From a virus (lineage: Duplodnaviria > Heunggongvirae > Uroviricota > Caudoviricetes): a stretch of 11,881 bases of DNA. The DNA is taken from IMG/VR virus record IMGVR_UViG_2579778791_000016, positions 1 through 11,881 of that record; one strand, 5' to 3'. Every line of letters begins with the position of its first letter. Position 1 is the first letter of the stretch. The position numbers and the translations under genes are program-made. Shown here piece after piece: positions 906 to 9,132 of the stretch. Below the pieces are notes generated by a model that was not told the origin of the DNA, did no database searches, and was given only the letters and a program-made list of their open reading frames with translations.

Positions 906-1232
906 TCAGGGTGCTGAAGGACTAAAGATAAATGTTTTCTTCACGCCTTTACGCGGCTTGTCCTTCTCAAATCGCCATTTTGCCATCGCCTTTACAACCT
1001 GCTCATCAAACAGATGGTGCGGCTCTGAACGGATAAACTCAATTCGGGTGACAGTACCATCAGCACCAATATCAAACTTCACATCAACCCGTCCCTTTAT
1101 ATAATTTGCCGCGGCATAGGCCGGATATTGTGGTAATGCCTTAACCAACTGTCGAGGCATATCTGTTTTATGTTGCGTACAGCCCATAACCAAAGAAGAC
1201 AACAAAATAATTAACGGAAGATTTCTTTTCAT
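906..1232 (-). CDS. Lipoprotein with a TonB C-terminal-like domain (accessory gene)
   Basis: ORF 906..1247. Probable start is the ATG at 1232 (MKRNLPLIILLSSLVMGC, a signal peptide with lipobox and Cys) preceded by GGGA. The C-terminal half YPAYAAANYIKGRVDVKFDIGADGTVTRIEFIRSEPHHLFDEQVVKAMAKWRFE fits the TonB_C pattern (YP..A...GxV.V.F.I...G.V..I.I..S.....FD..V..A...WRF). The alternative ATG at 1247 has no Shine-Dalgarno. Confidence 0.6.
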   Translation of the reverse strand: MKRNLPLIILLSSLVMGCTQHKTDMPRQLVKALPQYPAYAAANYIKGRVDVKFDIGADGTVTRIEFIRSEPHHLFDEQVVKAMAKWRFEKDKPRKGVKKTFIFSPSAP

Positions 1233-1252
1233 TTTTATTCCCGGCATAGATA

Positions 1253-1269: not shown

Positions 1270-1907
1270 AACAATGCAGCCCTGTCGGTCATCAATCCTC
1301 TGCTTAATGGCAATGACAATTATCCGACTTAAATCACAAATCAGACACATGACATAACAGAGCTTGCGAGGTAACACATCGTCCGGTTTCTTCCACCATC
1401 GCACCGGACCAGCGACCATGAGGGGACAACGCCGCGCTCCGTTAACACGGTAAACCCCGGTGTGTATCGTTTTTGATTATCCCCGCACACTCGCGCAGAG
1501 GAGTCTCCCTCTCGGGCTGTGGTCTCTGTTGATGCGGGAATACGGCGACGATACAGTGCATAGTTATGTCAGGCTAAAATGCCTTTATCAAATCTGGGTA
1601 ACGCAATCTGCCATTGTTGGCTCCGGTTGTGGTGATGATGTCAAGCAAGCCCATCTTGACTATCTCAACTAGTCGATTCATGACATATGTCACATTTATA
1701 CCAACCAGATCATTGCGTTGAGTTTACAACTCAATAATTCTTGGTTGGACGTCAAGTTTTGACGGTATTCGGGTGGCAGTTGATAGCAATCTTGGAACCG
1801 TCCACCTAATAGCTGCTTGTGTGGCGTTTAAATTGTGGAGTGCTCGCAACAGAACTTTTCTTTCTTGTTTGCGAGCGATGTTTAGCAACTTTTAAGAGAG
1901 TTAAGTC

Positions 1908-2138
1908 ATGGAGTTTTTGAAAGAGCATCATTTGCCTTCAATAATTTTTGGAATTTTTTCCGCCATTTTTTGGATTATTTCATGTTTTGCATCTTCCAAA
2001 GAACACCCACCAAAAACGGAACAAGGCAGTTTCTCATCACTGGGTTGTTTTAAAGCCATTGAAATACAAAGTAAATGGAATAAACGGGCTGCTTTTTGCG
2101 CAGCGTTAGCTGTTCTTGCTCAAGTATTTAGCTTTTAG
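1908..2138 (+). CDS. Small membrane protein of unknown function (76 aa), opposite strand to the late operon
   Basis: ATG start with a weak GAGAG Shine-Dalgarno, hydrophobic segment LPSIIFGIFSAIFWIISCFA, and a strong intrinsic terminator immediately downstream. AT-rich. Occupies the position and orientation that bor has in lambda but is unrelated to Bor. Confidence 0.4.
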   Translation: MEFLKEHHLPSIIFGIFSAIFWIISCFASSKEHPPKTEQGSFSSLGCFKAIEIQSKWNKRAAFCAALAVLAQVFSF

Positions 2139-2155
2139 TTTCAAAAGTGTAAATC

Positions 2156-2254: not shown

Positions 2255-2692
2255 TCATCGAAGGCATTGCGTCCTAATGTACTCCTGCAAGTAGTTAACC
2301 TGCGCGGTTATCCTGTCGATTCCACTTCGGAGACGGTAATAATTGAGTTCAGCATCTGCTGTAAGTCCTGGGGTTTCTCCATTGCCCATGCCGCTGGCTC
2401 CGGTCGTTGACTTTGCACAGGTGGCGGCGACTTGCAGGCGCTTACGCCCAGCAGAAACATCAGCACGGAGACTTTCGATAGTCGCATTAGCATCAGCAAG
2501 CTCCTTTGTGTATCTGGCGTCAAGTTCTGCTACATCACGTTGCCGCTTCTGCATATCAGCGATGATGGATGTGGCTTTATCGCGCTGCTCTTTGTAGGCG
2601 ATGGCGTTATCACGGTAATGATTAACAGCCCATGAAAGGCAGACGATGAGGCAGATGACCAGAACGTAGATAATCGCGGTTACTCTGCTCAT
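2255..2692 (-). CDS. Rz: Rz i-spanin (inner-membrane spanin subunit)
   Basis: Translation [31 protein letters not shown]...[11 protein letters not shown] is close to lambda Rz as recalled. The start ATG at 2692 overlaps the R stop (ATGA). The ORF-track start at 2704 is four codons upstream. Confidence 0.85.
2308..2493 (-). CDS. Rz1: Rz1 o-spanin lipoprotein, embedded in the +1 frame of Rz
   Basis: [41 protein letters not shown]... has a lipobox plus a proline-rich stretch like lambda Rz1 (VVGCTSK...PPPPPAW). Lies wholly inside Rz in another frame. Start chosen at the ATG at 2493; ATGs at 2487 or 2523 are alternatives. Confidence 0.75.
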
Positions 2693-3186
2693 TGTTGCCC
2701 CCACAAACAGACTTCACGCTCAATCTCACGGCGAGTCATCAGCCCTTTCCATTGCTTACCGCCAGCGTATGTCCAGCGCCGTAGCTGATCACATGCGCCT
2801 TTGATATCGCCCTGGTTTATTTTGCGAAGAAGCGTCGATGTTCTGAAATTGCCAGCGCCCACGTTGTAAACGAACGAGTAAAGAGCGCCGCGCGTTGTTT
2901 CCGGTATATCGACGTTGATGTACGGGTTTATTTGTCTGGCGACCGTGGCAAGGTCTTTATTCAGGAGGGCTTTGCATTCTGCTTCGGTATACGTTTTACC
3001 GGGCATGATGTCTTTTCCGGTGTGTCCGTGACATACAGTCCATACGCCAACGATATCTTCGTATGGTATGTAGCTGACACCTTCCAGGCCATCGTCACCA
3101 CTCGGACCAGTGATGAGCACAGACGCTATGGCAACAGCCCCACCACCAATAGCAGCAGCAACAGCCTTGCGTAATGACGGCGACAT
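2689..3186 (-). CDS. R: SAR endolysin (phage-21-type lysozyme with N-terminal signal-anchor-release domain)
   Basis: [30 protein letters not shown]... has a Gly/Ala-rich SAR helix followed by a lysozyme domain, and is near-identical to phage 21 R as recalled. Start overlaps the S stop (TAATG). Confidence 0.9.
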
Positions 3187-3392
3187 TATTCACCTCTCGC
3201 AGCCTTACGCTTATCTTCTTTAATCTTGAAATAAAGGTTTGTCAGATACGTCAGCAGGCCAAACAGCAGACTCCCCAGCACACCTATTGCCACCCACTGG
3301 GACGGAGAGACTTTGTCCAGCAGCTGCAGTAACCAGTATCCCGTCCCCACCGCTGACGTGGTGTATGACACACCTGTTGTGATTTTTTCCAT
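3186..3392 (-). CDS. S: Pinholin (class II holin, S21-like)
   Basis: [68 protein letters not shown] has two transmembrane segments and a basic C-terminus, closely resembling S21-68. GGAG Shine-Dalgarno 10-14 nt upstream. No in-frame upstream start, so no dual-start antiholin is apparent. Confidence 0.85.
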
Positions 3393-3435
3393 CTGATGTA
3401 TGTCTCCGTCACCGCCGACAGAAAATGAAAGTAAA

Positions 3436-3473
3436 GAAAAACAAAAAAGCCGCCAGTGTCACCCACTGACGGC
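3436..3473 (-). terminator. Intrinsic terminator 44 nt upstream of the holin start codon
   Basis: Minus strand GCCGUCAGUG-GGUGA-CACUGGCGGC (10-bp stem with one U-G pair) followed by UUUUUUGUUUUUCUUU. Confidence 0.6.
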
Positions 3474-3648
3474 CAACGCCGGGAGCCGTGATTATGGCAT
3501 TCAGGCTCTGCTAAAAATGCCAGATAACATTCCGGCCAACCCCTGATTCAGGTTATAAATGACACAATATCTTGACAACATCCGTCACTGTCTGTCAGAA
3601 AATGTACTGCCAAGTATAAGTATCATGTGAAGTACATCTACCCGTTTT

Positions 3649-3684
3649 AGCCAGCGTCCTTCAGAGTGGGCGCTGGCTTTTTTT
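3649..3684 (+). terminator. Plus-strand-specific intrinsic terminator abutting the nanS-p stop codon, antisense to the late operon
   Basis: Plus strand AGCCAGCG-(12-nt loop)-CGCUGGCU followed by UUUUUUUAUUAU. On the minus strand the same hairpin is preceded by an A-run and followed by AAAACGGG, so it should not terminate late transcription. Confidence 0.5.
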
Positions 3685-3685
3685 A

Positions 3686-5536
3686 TTATGCTGCCGGTGC
3701 ATTTATCTCCAGCACCAGACTTTCTATCTCAACACCATACGCTGCATTTTTGGTAATATCCGTCAGCGTCAGCGCATTCAGCCCCAGTGTCAGACTGTCT
3801 TTTATGACCTGGAATGCCGGGCCAGCCACTCCATTCAGTTTCGGAGTAACCGTGGCACTGCCGGCGGTGAACACCAGCTCCAGCGTCTGCCAGTCGTTAC
3901 CGTAATCGCCGAACTCCCCCAGCTTCGTGTTTCCGGCTTTCCTGTGATGCATCAGATTCACTCTGCCGTCAGTGGTCTGAGTGAAGTGCGACATCAGGAA
4001 CGGATTACCGGTACCCGTCATCGCCACACCATCAGGAACGGGAGCGTCCGTATACAGATAAATCCCCAGCCCGAACTGATTGTTGGTCAGTGCGCCTGAG
4101 AGGCGGAACTTACAGGTCAGTCTGCCGCCCTGTGTCAGCAGGGTAATTGCGTCATCCACCGGATGCATCAGGGACCAGGTTTTATTGCTCTGCTTGGTGA
4201 TCTTAAATACACCATCTGACAACTGAATTCCGCCGTCCTTAATGGTCCAGCCCTGCGCAGCAGCATCTCCGGCTGTCGGCATCAGGGAGATTGTGCGTAT
4301 GGATGCATCTTCAGACGGCCCCGATGGCGTGTTGCCGCCGGGCGAGGGTTTGATTTCCGGTGCCTTACCACTGATGAAGGCTGAGGTGCGCCCGGCTGCG
4401 TTCAGAATAGCGGTTGCCAGACGATCCGGAATAATGCTCCTGCGCGCCCATGAACTGAAATGTGTCGGGCGGTTTGATGATACCTGGTTTCCATTCGTTC
4501 TCGATGCCGCACCGTAATATCCTGATGCCGGAATATCCGGATCTTCTGCCGGCGCGTTAGTGGCGGTATTGACGCCGTTACCGTCTGTCATGAAGGGCAC
4601 AAAATAAACGCCCTCACTCTCCCTGTTTTTATACCCGCCGTACACGGTGTCGTACTGGGTAGCGTATGTATTTTTCCAGTAATACGTCGTGTCACCACAA
4701 ACCCACGGCACATCTGCAGCACTGCCACCATGACACTGCGCGTTAAACACAGAGAGGTCAGCACGAAACTGCGTCAGCATGGCTGTAAACAGCGCAGGTT
4801 GCTGTGCGTAGGTGGCGGCGCTCATGTCAAACTCACCCTGCATCCAGCAGACGGCCAGCAGAACGTTTTTGGGATTTTTCTGCAATGCCGCTTTTGTGCG
4901 GGAAATCAGATCCTGATATAACGGCTTGCCCACCCCCCAGCGTGCCGAATCCTGACTGGCCCCCGTGGACTCGCTGAATGTCCCCTCCGCGCCCTGGGTA
5001 AATGCCGAACCACCACGACAGCATGGTACCAGCAGGATCCCCGCGTTATTCGGGATATACGGGAGCAGTTTTTTGGCAATATGTAAACCCTGACCGACAC
5101 AGCCGTACTGCCCTTTGCTCAGGTCAGCCCTCGGATGATTCAGCGTACTCATATCCTGCACATCATGCAGACAGTGGTCAGCCGGAATAATATCGTTATA
5201 TCTGCAGGCAGCCCCGCCCGGCGTCACTGTACTGCGGCGCGCCAGCTGTTTAATGCGCGGATCCGGAGCATCGTATGAATCCGGCAGCGGAAGCCCTTCA
5301 CCGTAAGCCATGGCATTGGACTGCCCGGCCAGTACGATGACGTAGTACCAATCCGGCTCAGATGAAGGGCCGACCTGTGCCTCTCCTTCAATAGCCACCG
5401 CCTGCATCAGTGTGTACGGCGTAATGGCAACCGGTCCGCCGTATGGCTGCCAGCCCTCTTTCAGTTTGTGTGTCAGCTTTTCCGCAAGGTCTGACGGCGA
5501 CGCCGCCCTGACAACATCGTAATGTTTAATCGACAT
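3686..5536 (-). CDS. nanS-p: Prophage sialate 9-O-acetylesterase (NanS-p / YjhS-like; N-terminal DUF1737-like region plus SGNH/SASA esterase domain)
   Basis: 616-aa ORF with ATG at 5536 and GGGAGA Shine-Dalgarno. Contains the SGNH block-I motif VIVLAGQSNAMAYGEG. Sits immediately upstream of the lysis cassette, as the nanS-p genes of Stx and related lambdoid prophages do. Confidence 0.75.
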   Translation of the reverse strand: MSIKHYDVVRAASPSDLAEKLTHKLKEGWQPYGGPVAITPYTLMQAVAIEGEAQVGPSSEPDWYYVIVLAGQSNAMAYGEGLPLPDSYDAPDPRIKQLARRSTVTPGGAACRYNDIIPADHCLHDVQDMSTLNHPRADLSKGQYGCVGQGLHIAKKLLPYIPNNAGILLVPCCRGGSAFTQGAEGTFSESTGASQDSARWGVGKPLYQDLISRTKAALQKNPKNVLLAVCWMQGEFDMSAATYAQQPALFTAMLTQFRADLSVFNAQCHGGSAADVPWVCGDTTYYWKNTYATQYDTVYGGYKNRESEGVYFVPFMTDGNGVNTATNAPAEDPDIPASGYYGAASRTNGNQVSSNRPTHFSSWARRSIIPDRLATAILNAAGRTSAFISGKAPEIKPSPGGNTPSGPSEDASIRTISLMPTAGDAAAQGWTIKDGGIQLSDGVFKITKQSNKTWSLMHPVDDAITLLTQGGRLTCKFRLSGALTNNQFGLGIYLYTDAPVPDGVAMTGTGNPFLMSHFTQTTDGRVNLMHHRKAGNTKLGEFGDYGNDWQTLELVFTAGSATVTPKLNGVAGPAFQVIKDSLTLGLNALTLTDITKNAAYGVEIESLVLEINAPAA

Positions 5537-5620
5537 CGAATTTCTCCCGTGTAGAGGAACAGAGTTAAAAAGCCGGAAGCGGAATCAAATCACAGGATGA
5601 CCATCTGCCAGTGGCAGGTC

Positions 5621-5649
5621 ATAAAAAAAAGGCTGCGCAATGCGCAGCC
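5621..5649 (-). terminator. Strong intrinsic terminator upstream of nanS-p; likely 3' end of the upstream cargo unit
   Basis: Minus strand GGCUGCGCA-UU-GCGCAGCC followed by UUUUUUUUAU. Confidence 0.65.
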
Positions 5650-6078
5650 AGAACTCACAAGGAAAATGATAAAAGGAATAACACTAGTGATGTACGCATG
5701 GCGCCTCCCGCTAAGTTCTGCAATGATCAAACAGAACTCGCTACGTGCCCTTAAAACTCGATCATTTAGCCCCTCCAAGGAGGATTCACCATGCGGTTGA
5801 TTTTTTAATAAACAGTAAACAAAAAAGTCAAGAATTATTCATTCTGTTCTTTCATCATCGGCCACAGCAATACCACAATGCCGCAGACCAGAGCGCCATC
5901 AGTCAGTACCAACATTATCCTGCTGGTGAAATCCATCATCACCATCACTAAAAGCAGGATCACAACAGCAAGCAGACACAGTTTATAAAACAATGTTCAG
6001 AAAACGCATTCAGCATGCCTAAGGTTCTATTCCTACGAATAGCCAACTTGCAACTTAAAATATTATTTATGCAGCCAA

Positions 6079-6795
6079 TTAAATTCTGGTCCTTACAATA
6101 TCAACCTGAAGATTCTTATCTTGTGCTGATTGATAAATGACAAACCTTTTACTACCTGCATTGAAAGAAGTAGACAAAACCAGACAATTATCATAACGAG
6201 CAAGAACATAATACCAACCATCATTATAATTAATCATTTCATATTCTTTCTTAAACTGTGGTTTGTAATATCCTGTCAGAAATGAAAAAAGCCAAAAATA
6301 TGCCACAAAAGCAATCATCACAATCTCAAAAAAATGTTTTTTTATAAATGGCTTATCATAGAAGCATGATACCGATAAAAATCGCCCATAAGATCTTATC
6401 GAAATTGTAACCGCCAGCGCAATCGCTGCTGACAGTAGCAAAAGAGGTACCTGAATCTTCTGTCTCAATATAGAAAACTCAATAATTGCCGGCACAAACA
6501 ATAATTCCACAGCAAAATAAAGGCGAAATACATTTAGCTCTTGCATAGAATGTTTTCTTTTCACTGCGAAAAAGAATACAACACCAATACCCCAACCGAT
6601 AAGAAATATAGCAATGACGATAACTGCAAAAAATAAACTTCTGGCAACATCATCAACACCTGCACCTACAATCCACCATGGGAAGCCGTAGTAAAAAGAA
6701 GTACCCCATCCATAGAAATAAGCACTCCCCCATCCAAGGCATCCCATGTAGGCAATAAAAAGTGAAGAACTCCTGAGCAGCGCACCATCCTTCAT
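6079..6795 (-). CDS. Uncharacterised polytopic membrane protein (about 5 predicted transmembrane helices plus a roughly 65-aa C-terminal soluble domain); AT-rich cargo gene
   Basis: Only long ORF in a markedly AT-rich block (track 6079..6837). Hydrophobic segments include LFIAYMGCLGWGSAYFYGW, LFFAVIVIAIFLIGWGIGVVFFFAV, FRLYFAVELLFVPAIIEF, LLLLSAAIALAVTISI and IVMIAFVAYFWLFSFLTGYY. Probable start is the ATG at 6795 (MKDGALL..., GGGGTGG upstream), because the first ATG at 6837 lies inside a promoter-like -10 element. No recognisable family. Confidence 0.6.
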   Translation of the reverse strand: MKDGALLRSSSLFIAYMGCLGWGSAYFYGWGTSFYYGFPWWIVGAGVDDVARSLFFAVIVIAIFLIGWGIGVVFFFAVKRKHSMQELNVFRLYFAVELLFVPAIIEFSILRQKIQVPLLLLSAAIALAVTISIRSYGRFLSVSCFYDKPFIKKHFFEIVMIAFVAYFWLFSFLTGYYKPQFKKEYEMINYNDGWYYVLARYDNCLVLSTSFNAGSKRFVIYQSAQDKNLQVDIVRTRI

Positions 6796-6832
6796 AACCA
6801 CCCCAATACAAGATGATAACATTGGCTTACAA

Positions 6833-6862
6833 CTCATAACAAAAGCAATTCAATGCCGTCAA
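6833..6862 (-). promoter_or_regulatory. Candidate sigma70 promoter of the membrane-protein cargo gene (TTGACG-N18-TATGAG)
   Basis: -35 TTGACG at 6862..6857, -10 TATGAG at 6838..6833, between the Q-proximal terminator and the gene. Judged by eye only. Confidence 0.3.
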
Positions 6863-6933
6863 GAGGTTACAGGCTAAAAAAACTCTATTACATAGCAGCC
6901 AGCATGTTTACCGTACAAGTACAACTCAGGGCA

Positions 6934-6961
6934 TAAAAAAAACCCACTCGGCAGCGGGTTT
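6934..6961 (-). terminator. Intrinsic terminator about 45 nt downstream of the Q stop codon (candidate tR')
   Basis: Minus strand AAACCCGCU-GCCG-AGUGGGUUU (G-U wobble in stem) followed by eight U. The plus strand also has a partial T-run after the hairpin. Confidence 0.65.
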
Positions 6962-6994
6962 ATACATTTTTTACAACATACCAAATTTGCATGA

Positions 6995-7023
6995 AGTATA
7001 TGGCTTTTAATCCAGTTTTGCAA
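6995..7023 (-). promoter_or_regulatory. Near-consensus sigma70 promoter overlapping the 3' end of Q (candidate late promoter pR' with qut)
   Basis: TTGCAA (7023..7018) - 17 nt - TATACT (7000..6995) on the minus strand. The Q stop codon (7009..7007) lies inside the spacer. A -10-like TGGTATGTT sits in the initial transcribed region. Confidence 0.45.
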
Positions 7024-7696
7024 TATTTTGCTGTAAAAATGCTGCCTTTTGTTTTGAACGTGTTCTCGTCACAAGCAATAAAGCATCACTATCAAGCTGT
7101 AGAAAAATGTGCTTCATTGCAACCCAGCGTTCAGTAAATGTCTCGGACCAGTTTTTTGTTGTCACTCCCACCAATGATGCCAGTGTCTGGTATTCATAGG
7201 CCTCACGCCCTGCAAGTTCGCTCTTCACATCCTGTGCAGCCAGCCAGATTAACGTCTTCAGGCGATCCAGTGTCTTACCTGCAATTTTTCTGTTACTTAA
7301 CAAATCTTTAAACTCGCTCCATGCCCATTGCGTTATGGTGACCTGATGCCCCCATCGAACGCTTTCGCTGTAACACCAAAGCAACCATGCTTTCTGATGT
7401 TCATCGAGAGACAAAACCGCGCGGCGCCATGAAGAGGTTGAGAATTCAACCGGGCTGACCAAAGCAATGGATGAACCTTTTGCGTACGACTGCTTACCGG
7501 AAGTCGGCGTATTATCCCGCGTAATCATCTTGCCAGTTACCACATCCAGAATGCGCGGCTTCTTTCGTTTGTATGTACCAGTATCAAATTGTGCATGCTC
7601 CTGCCAGGCTTCGAGCTGGCCTTTCGTTGCTCCGTTCAAGTCAGCAGTAGCTGCCATAAGTTGCTCACGAACATACTGTAAATATTGGGTATTCAT
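7007..7696 (-). CDS. Q: Q-like late antiterminator (long-form Q family, about 230-250 aa)
   Basis: Positioned after ninI and before the late/lysis genes, with a promoter and terminator at its 3' end. Start taken at the ATG at 7696 (MNTQYLQYVREQ..., AGGA Shine-Dalgarno 8 nt upstream) rather than the track start at 7780. Family assignment rests on context and size, not on recognised motifs. Confidence 0.5.
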   Translation of the reverse strand: MNTQYLQYVREQLMAATADLNGATKGQLEAWQEHAQFDTGTYKRKKPRILDVVTGKMITRDNTPTSGKQSYAKGSSIALVSPVEFSTSSWRRAVLSLDEHQKAWLLWCYSESVRWGHQVTITQWAWSEFKDLLSNRKIAGKTLDRLKTLIWLAAQDVKSELAGREAYEYQTLASLVGVTTKNWSETFTERWVAMKHIFLQLDSDALLLVTRTRSKQKAAFLQQNIAKLD

Positions 7697-8172
7697 GCAG
7701 TAAATCCTTTCTATATTTTGGCATAATTCTTCAACATTCGGTAATCGTTCAAAACCGAATCGGGGAAACGACATAAGCACAGGAGCCCCCAGCGACAGCG
7801 AAGGAGTTCTGATATATAAGACTCAGACATCATTCATTCCCCGGTTCTCCAATATCTGTTTCACTCATCATCCATAACTACCTGTAATTGCCCCCCCTTT
7901 TTTTGTAACAGTTCTTATATTGCTATATAGAATAGCCATTACTAATGCATTTAAATTTAATAAAATAAAAATTATAAAAAAACATAAAACACCACGCAAA
8001 CACACTTAATAAAAACACCGTTACATTAAAAGATAATAAAAACCACAATAAAAAACAAATAAATCAATTGTCTCACGCAATTATAAAACATCATATTGAT
8101 TACGCACCTTGTATTACAAACTCATGTATGTAAAATACGCGCACCATTCAAAAAAAAGGAAGACAATAACAT

Positions 8173-9132
8173 ATGAAAAAAAGTGTCATCGCTGGCGTCT
8201 TTATTGCTCTGTCATTTACCACGTGTTCAGCTATCGCGAACAGCCTTGCATTATCATTAGCAAATGATGATGCAGGGAAGTTTCAACCAATACTTAATGA
8301 TATTTATGGCAATAAACATGAAAACAGAGATGATTACTCACAAGGCTTATTTCTGGGATATAGCCACGATATCTCAGACTCGAGCCAATTATCTCTCCAT
8401 ATTGCGCAAGATATTTACTCTCCATCAGGCAGTAATAAAAGACACAACACAGCCGTAACTGGAGACAGAGCTTTTAGTGCATACACTCACACTGGTATTG
8501 AATGGAACTCCCTTGCGAATGACTGGATTCGCTATCGATTAGGTACTGACATAGGTGTTGTTGGCCCCGACGCAGGCGGTCAGAAAGTACAAAATAAAGC
8601 TCATGAGATTATTGGGGCAGAAAAATATCATGCATGGGATGATCAAATAGAGAATCGCTACGGTTATACTGTAAAAGGGATGCTATCCATGACACCAAGT
8701 ATGGATATTTTAGGTGCTAATGTTGGATTATACCCTGAAGTTTCTGCTGTTACTGGAAACTTATTTCAATATGTAGCATATGGCGCAACCATTGCCATTG
8801 GTAATGATAAAACCTTCAATTCGGATAATGGCTTTGGTCTGCTGGCTCCCCGTGGTTTAATGCATATGTCCGATACAAGCGGATTCAAATACAAGATTTT
8901 TGCAGGTATGGAAAGACGAGATGTCAATCGCAACTATACTCTCGAAGGAAAAACAATACAGACGAAACAAACAACAGTATCGCTAAACAAAACTGTTGAT
9001 GAATATCAAGTTGGCGCAACAATTGGGTATGCACCTGTAGCCTTCACACTAGCATTTAATAAAGTAACATCAGAATTCAAGACAGGGGATGACTATTCAT
9101 TTATAAATGGAGCAATCACCTTCTTTTTTTAA
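8173..9132 (+). CDS. lpxR: Outer-membrane beta-barrel protein, probably lipid A 3'-O-deacylase LpxR family
   Basis: Signal peptide MKKSVIAGVFIALSFTTCSAIA, predicted mature size 296 aa (the size I recall for mature LpxR), C-terminal aromatic beta-barrel signature ...GAITFFF, AAGGAAG Shine-Dalgarno. AT-rich gene with a long AT-rich upstream region, opposite in orientation to the flanking phage genes. Confidence 0.55.
   Translation: MKKSVIAGVFIALSFTTCSAIANSLALSLANDDAGKFQPILNDIYGNKHENRDDYSQGLFLGYSHDISDSSQLSLHIAQDIYSPSGSNKRHNTAVTGDRAFSAYTHTGIEWNSLANDWIRYRLGTDIGVVGPDAGGQKVQNKAHEIIGAEKYHAWDDQIENRYGYTVKGMLSMTPSMDILGANVGLYPEVSAVTGNLFQYVAYGATIAIGNDKTFNSDNGFGLLAPRGLMHMSDTSGFKYKIFAGMERRDVNRNYTLEGKTIQTKQTTVSLNKTVDEYQVGATIGYAPVAFTLAFNKVTSEFKTGDDYSFINGAITFFF

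Follow-up and report, generated by a model that had tools for sequence, protein, structure and literature searches.

The window analysed here is a stretch of 11,881 nt from a Caudoviricetes record of IMG/VR (IMGVR_UViG_2579778791_000016), with the minus strand as its late strand. Over positions 2600-7900 the sequence shares 98.5% identity with the late region of phage 434 (OL657226.1) and 97% with phage 2B8. The late region opens with Q (7010..7696, minus strand), which codes for a late antiterminator of the Q82 family (Pfam PF06323, E = 1.4e-90; "Q82-like" in the 434 annotation). The 3' end of Q is overlapped by a candidate pR' (6995..7023, minus strand), a putative promoter proposed from a promoter scan (9/12 match) and from reading of the sequence. 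Immediately behind it lies the terminator T1 (6932..6961, minus strand), supported by scan, fold, alignment and the 434 annotation.

Cargo follows on the same strand. An ORF for a putative membrane protein (6079..6837; ORF list and 434 annotation), without any match in Pfam, occupies the interval between T1 and the small RNA PasD2 (5623..5794), and small ORFs are found between this ORF and nanS-p in minus-strand gene order. The nanS-p gene itself (3686..5536, minus strand) encodes a sialate O-acetylesterase of the SASA family with DUF1737, SASA and DUF6645 domains in Pfam, in agreement with the 434 annotation. The spacer between nanS-p and the lysis genes contains the small RNA PasC on the plus strand (3607..3684) and the holin-proximal intrinsic terminator T3 on the minus strand (3437..3474), detected by scan, stringent scan, fold, 434 annotation and covariation.

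The lysis cassette consists of three minus-strand genes: S (3186..3392), a class II (P21-type) pinholin of 68 aa (PF04971, E = 1.2e-32; "holin class II, pinholin" in 434), R (2689..3186), a SAR endolysin of the phage lysozyme type (PF00959, E = 1.5e-45; 434 annotation), and Rz (2255..2704), an i-spanin gene with embedded Rz1 (PF03245, E = 1.1e-34; 434 annotation). The order pasD, esterase, pasC, holin is the arrangement published for phage 2B8. Taken as a whole, the architecture of Q, pR', tR', cargo and lysis cassette is standard for lambdoid phages, and the accepted view of Q-gated late expression is left unchanged by our analysis.

Outside this region, the window and phage 434 diverge downstream of Rz. 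In this part of the window (909-1247, minus strand, and 1845-2141, plus strand) no bor/iss-like gene is present; its place is taken by a 113-aa late-strand ORF with a TonB C-terminal domain (PF03544, E = 2.7e-15). A gene for the lipid A deacylase LpxR (8173-9132, plus strand) runs opposite to the late strand in the interval from the nin region to Q. Its placement is the same in phage 434 and in prophage PP2 of E2348/69, and it is among the "PasD conserved genes" of the Storz preprint (bioRxiv 10.64898/2026.05.13.724894).

Three terminators between Q and S

The late strand was searched from the Q stop to the S start with strict thresholds: 7 or more pairs, of which 4 or more G-C, dG of -10 kcal/mol or lower, and 6 or more T in 8. 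T1, T2 and T3 were the only hits; 200 dinucleotide shuffles gave 0.03 hits on average, and none of them reached three. All three sites display the anatomy of intrinsic terminators, namely a G+C-rich hairpin with a U-tract directly behind it on the transcribed strand. The stem of T1 (6961..6940; hairpin AAACCCGCUGCCGAGUGGGUUU) has 9 pairs and runs into the U-tract (-13.3 kcal/mol, z = -4.3). T2 has a stem of 8 pairs, 7 of them G-C (5649..5631), followed by U8 (-17.5 kcal/mol, z = -3.9). In T3, the stem (3474..3448) comprises 11 pairs, including 7 G-C, and encloses a 5-nt loop (GGCCGUCAGUG-GGUGA-CACUGGCGGCU; -21.6 kcal/mol, z = -3.4). Its tail UUUUUUGUUUUU forms the U-tract (3447-3437), which ends about 44-45 nt upstream of the S start codon at 3392.

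The first-pass annotation of this DNA had placed late-strand hairpin and U-tract terminators after Q, before nanS-p and before S. Scan, folds and shuffles agree with it, and its coordinates are accurate to 1-2 nt. All three sites carry the label "terminator" in the GenBank record of phage 434 (OL657226.1, 42034-42059, 43343-43371 and 45673-45709), so the observation is correct, but not new. Since the terminators separate the Q82-family Q from the pinholin/SAR-endolysin/Rz cassette, transcription of the lysis genes from pR' must pass all three, as had also been proposed.

Late control in lambdoid phages (lambda, 21, 82, Stx phages) shares most of these features: a Q of the Q82 family, a promoter that overlaps this gene at its end, a -10-like element in the first part to be transcribed, a short leader ending at T1, and late genes, those for lysis included, placed behind terminators that should be passed by Q-loaded polymerase only. 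Unlike in these systems, the window has three terminators between pR' and S rather than one, and two of them belong to cargo modules. A simple terminator scan of the lambda Q-to-S region gave no match, and tR' itself was missed too. Luk and Szybalski (1983) reportedly described tandem terminators for the late leader of lambda.

T1 lies 46 nt past the Q stop. The candidate pR' consists of TTGCAA, a 17-nt spacer and TATACT, and reading of the sequence places a -10-like TGGTATGTT element in the region that would be transcribed first. The same layout of the candidate promoter is found in the cargo-free locus L148. T1 occupies the canonical position of tR', roughly 30-55 nt past the predicted start, and it aligns stem for stem with tR' of Min27 (933W-type) and with the pre-S terminator of phage 2G7b, in which no same-strand gene separates this terminator from S. 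As the first terminator past the candidate pR' and its putative sigma-dependent pause element, and as the homologue of tR' in relatives, T1 is tR', the terminator that would end the short pR' leader RNA. A gene of the Q family lies immediately upstream of promoter and terminator, as is typical of a Q-dependent late operon.

The leader from pR' to T1 is a possible counterpart of StxS, which in Stx phages is the leader RNA of pR' (PMC7547250). Like StxS, the window's predicted leader is a short pR' transcript, expected to be constitutive and ended by T1, whose hairpin aligns with tR' of Min27; unlike StxS (258 nt), it would be only about 55 nt long. No evidence for Hfq binding or a regulatory role of the window's pR' leader was found. 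The leader region (6931-7000, minus strand) gives a weak Rfam match to STnc240, a Salmonella small RNA (28.2 bits, E = 0.9). Term-seq data of EHEC Sakai are deposited as GEO GSE143631, as given in PMC7547250.

The terminator before nanS-p is genuine, but the view of it as a simple cargo-flanking element has to be corrected: T2 is the intrinsic terminator of the strongly expressed PasD2 and forms its 3' end. The minus-strand segment 5794-5623 is identical at 172 of 172 positions to PasD2 of EPEC E2348/69, where this Hfq-dependent small RNA was validated (PMC8550237). PasD2 is a relative of STnc100; the Rfam family (RF02076) matches positions 5620-5824 with 41.4 bits (E = 2.7e-6), which is below its gathering score of 47. 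Scan and fold agree with the assignment of T2 to an RNA of the PasD/STnc100 type. A good promoter-like site (TTGACT, 16-nt spacer, TATTAA) is situated just upstream of PasD2 at about 5829-5802. In Min27, too, relatives of PasD/STnc100 precede esterase genes (L085 4251-4274).

In the account of PMC4104026 and PMC8065619, which cite Juhala et al. 2000, morons are cargo genes that bring a promoter and a terminator with them and have been inserted at sites downstream of pR'. The cargo of the window resembles them in that nanS-p, the membrane-protein ORF and small RNAs are situated between Q and S and flanked by terminators, and in that the esterase is expressed in the EPEC lysogen (PMC8550237) and the lysis genes are not. 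It differs in two respects. First, nanS-p has a terminator downstream (T3), but a promoter scan found no separate sigma-70-like site between T2 and the nanS-p ATG (5537-5622, minus strand). The gene is possibly transcribed by read-through of T2 from the PasD2 promoter, in which case PasD2 would serve as a leader or attenuator for the esterase. Second, the T3 hairpin and the S leader are conserved across different nanS-p-linked contexts and are not tied to one cargo gene.

Transcription of cargo and lysis genes

The spacer between nanS-p and S harbours a feature that was absent from the first-pass annotation. PasC (3607-3684, plus strand) is identical at 78 of 78 positions to PasC of E2348/69, for which coordinates and a northern probe are given in Table S6 of PMC8550237. 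It lies antisense to the late strand and ends in a terminator of its own, a plus-strand hairpin (3649-3678) followed by U7 that abuts the nanS-p stop codon; the segment 3640-3690 folds with -22.7 kcal/mol (z = -5.1). It follows that any late-strand RNA extending from nanS-p as far as T3 contains the full complement of PasC. The stretch between the PasC promoter and the S ATG, in which T3 lies, is the same in the window, phage 434 and E2348/69 PP2 but for AG / TTG at about 70 nt upstream of the T3 hairpin. In the identical T3 segment of PP2, the hairpin corresponds to NC_011601 743631-743657 and the U-tract to 743658-743668.

Phage 434 and PP2 contain an extra 154 nt at window positions 3685-3690 (L001 7216-7370, L002 5267-5420), because they have two PasA/C-type antisense modules in tandem and the window only one, of the PasC type.

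T3 belongs to no described RNA, and no Rfam family covers it at E <= 1. The window holds exact copies of PasD2 and PasC of the EPEC/EHEC PasD/PasA/PasC system (PMC8550237; bioRxiv 10.64898/2026.05.13.724894), yet T3 is part of neither. We considered T3 as the terminator of PasA/PasC, since the Storz preprint (bioRxiv 10.64898/2026.05.13.724894) locates pasA/pasC between the esterase and holin genes, and rejected this candidate: judged by the coordinates, northern probe and sequence in the literature, PasA/PasC is encoded on the other strand, and PasC and T3 are 130 nt apart.

RNA of the late-strand spacer is present in the lysogen. In RIL-seq, the segment 3594-3612 (minus strand; NC_011601 743494-743512) is found as RNA1 in chimeras with PasB, with 19 chimeric fragments in activating and 798 in non-activating conditions. 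Transcripts thus pass the nanS-p stop codon and need to be stopped before S. The nanS-p 3'UTR / S leader may be a target of PasB. Among the RIL-seq entries listed, none concerns RNA of the S 5'UTR, the esterase 3'UTR or the spacer downstream of Q.

Published RNA-seq of E2348/69, whose prophage segment is identical, allows expression to be followed along the late strand. Mean normalised counts are 11017 for PasD2, 3879 for PasA and 102 for the esterase, and 3.5, 3.2 and 1.0 for holin, endolysin and Rz, respectively (PMC8550237). Expressed per nucleotide in PP2, these values amount to about 64 for PasD2, 0.055 for the esterase, 0.017 for the holin, 0.0065 for the endolysin and 0.0023 for Rz. Counts per nucleotide drop about 1000-fold over T2. 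The drop over T3 (about 3-fold to the holin, 8-fold to the endolysin and 24-fold to Rz) is weakly supportive, because it depends on about 3 counts in a repeated sequence. The EPEC data fit insulation of the lysis genes in the lysogen.

In Stx lysogens, pR' is constitutively active and its transcripts are terminated at tR' (PMC7547250). Polymerase loaded with Q reads processively through hairpin terminators, over tens of kilobases (PMC9388147). The nozzle mechanism behind this was shown for Q-lambda and Q21 (PMC9388147); the Q of the window belongs to the Q82 family.

T3 is probably an intrinsic terminator that marks the left edge of the lysis cassette and serves both insulation in the lysogen and gating by Q. 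We infer termination at T3 and its Q-dependent read-through; Q-modified read-through and lysogen insulation are both well-founded inferences. In the lysogen, polymerase without Q would stop on the late strand about 45 nt before S. The transcripts stopped there would be nanS-p mRNA, most likely the substrate of T3 in the lysogen, together with whatever reads through from the highly active promoter of PasD2. With unmodified transcription halted before S, the pinholin, SAR endolysin and spanin genes would stay silent. After induction, Q would load onto polymerase paused just past pR', and the modified polymerase would cross T1 (tR'), T2 (which ends PasD2) and T3 one after another, confining lysis-gene expression to the presence of Q. 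The most likely function of T3 is therefore to keep transcripts of prophage cargo out of the lethal lysis genes until Q overrides it.

Leaky expression of pinholin and SAR endolysin would kill the lysogen. A terminator in front of the lysis cassette would explain how prophages can keep actively transcribed cargo between Q and S and still spare the host. Sialate esterase and very abundant small RNAs belong to this cargo, as does Shiga toxin in relatives.

Structural selection on the T3 hairpin

Loci encoding close relatives of the holin were sampled from IMG/VR (80 loci), yielding 33 distinct variants of the region from -90 to -29. Every variant (33/33) has a hairpin with T-rich tail 43-55 nt before the ATG of a P21-type holin gene. 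The context upstream of the hairpin varies and can be a PasA/C module, a small-ORF stop codon (933W type) or, in PP4 of E2348/69, an esterase gene that has decayed.

The T3 hairpin is under structural selection. Across the 33 variants, 91.7% of cells are paired, and changes on both sides of the stem are found in 6 of 11 pairs. The covariation score of 0.380 compares with 0.271 in shuffles and was reached in none of 500; slid controls gave at most 0.197. The helix of the T3 family was also predicted independently by RNAalifold.

The sample was then widened by 62 loci, taken from one genome per species; its 141 loci, from many genera of Enterobacteriaceae, group into 51 clusters by upstream sequence. 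In 29 of the 51 clusters a terminator on the late strand lies no more than 150 nt from the holin start, compared with 1 of 51 on the opposite strand and 0.7 in shuffles. These terminators fall into two position classes, about 37-55 nt and about 88-120 nt before the holin. The remaining 22 of 51 clusters have no terminator under the criteria used, so the feature is common, not obligatory. A terminator just before the lysis cassette is widespread and strand-specific, without being universal.

Individual phages illustrate the arrangement. In the Stx2 phage Min27, four late-strand terminators are lined up in series: tR', one after tRNA genes, one before nanS-p and one before S. In phage Ayreon, the depositors annotated a terminator that follows a DNA methylase gene and precedes the holin gene by 42 nt. 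Exact copies of the T3 module, taken as the 168 nt that immediately precede S, are present in 699 of the 5426 complete E. coli genomes; positive genomes contain a median of 4, and RefSeq leaves the module unannotated.

Annotation of the three sites in the 434 record and publication of PasD2 (T2) and PasC as small RNAs precede this work. Added here are covariation of the holin-proximal hairpin family, its strand-specific enrichment, the corrected identity of T2 and recognition of the antisense PasC. In practice, annotation of prophage regions can be improved for T3, PasC and PasD2.

Alternative readings of T3

T3 could also be a relic of the leader. The first-pass annotation had suggested that it is an ancestral tR' displaced by insertion of nanS-p; in a broader form, T3 would be the ancestral tR' or the second member of an ancestral tandem pair, left beside S when cargo was inserted downstream of pR', where morons are known to insert (PMC4104026). 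In two loci free of cargo (L100 and L148), the holin gene comes directly after a Q of the Q82 family, and two terminators already lie between pR' and the holin; T3 may therefore go back, in the distant past, to a second terminator of the leader. Their second terminator lies 110-120 nt before the holin start, consistent with the more distant position class of the systematic scan (about 88-120 nt), but T3 is only about 45 nt from S. Moreover, the counterpart of tR' in both position and sequence is T1, which already occupies the canonical site. T3 lies about 3.5 kb downstream of that site and does not align with tR' of Min27 or with the 2G7b terminator; forcing it onto tR' hairpins requires a 19-nt insertion, and there are no common flanks. 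Finally, the T3 hairpin family is found only downstream of nanS-p-type cargo, which suggests that T3 travels with the nanS-p module. The displaced tR' is thus not borne out, and descent of T3 from a leader terminator is in general improbable.

The terminators of the cargo-free loci are situated at 2122-2153 and 2359-2382 in L100 and at about 2247-2275 and 2357-2374 in L148, with a conserved TTCTATTTCAGGCTCC motif after the second.

Another reading moves the role of the hairpin to the finished transcript. It would act mainly as a stabilising or processing structure on the 5' side of the S message, or as the end of the nanS-p 3'UTR, with termination being secondary. Such a role would agree with the fixed distance between hairpin and S start across variants (43-55 nt) and with the nature of the 3'UTR ending at T3, which is antisense to the whole of PasC and, according to RIL-seq, is contacted by PasB. 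It would agree as well with members of the L016 type, in which the hairpin is intact and kept with covariation despite a degenerate, poor U-tract (tail CCUGUUGUUGUG). On the contrary, a canonical U-tract directly follows the stem in most variants, and hairpins with T-tract are enriched on the transcribed strand only. We therefore hold a mainly post-transcriptional function to be rather unlikely, in favour of T3 as an intrinsic terminator. Members with a poor U-tract (L016 type) may be weak terminators, or their hairpin may have a role other than termination.

The L016, L052, L057 and L077 types have in common that the hairpin is kept at about -75 to -43 from the holin ATG and the tail is degenerate (CCTGTTGTTGTG / CTTGTTGTTGTG).

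We put forward only as a speculative idea, with little probability assigned to it, that hairpins of the T3 type are modular "lysis-cassette guards" selected in their own right, which at the same time form the 3' end of a long nanS-p 3'UTR, perfectly antisense to PasC/PasA and contacted by PasB. If true, such a guard would couple the small-RNA network of the lysogen to silencing of lysis genes, or to a sponge RNA derived from the 3'UTR.

It is unlikely that T3 ends a separate late-strand small RNA transcribed, like PasD2, from its own promoter in the spacer, with the block to read-through as a by-product. The setting would suit such an RNA: the locus is rich in Hfq-binding small RNAs ending in terminators (PasD2, PasC), convergent small RNAs at moron sites have been described for EHEC prophages (PMC4104026), the tail of T3 is long and U-rich as in Hfq-bound RNAs, the window, phage 434 and E2348/69 agree fully over roughly 130 nt upstream of T3, and a 175-nt late-strand RNA folds with z = -2.7. 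However, no late-strand sigma-70-like promoter with a match of at least 9/12 occurs in 3600-3475, the two elements of the best candidate (TTGTCA ... TATAAC) being 15 nt apart. The RIL-seq chimeras of the spacer RNA (RNA1 with PasB) are those of a target and not of a small RNA, and neither Pas study reports a small RNA at this place. In addition, the homologous hairpin of the 933W type begins about 10 nt past the ORF stop codon, so that no space is left for a small-RNA gene. Together, these points make this reading a very doubtful one.
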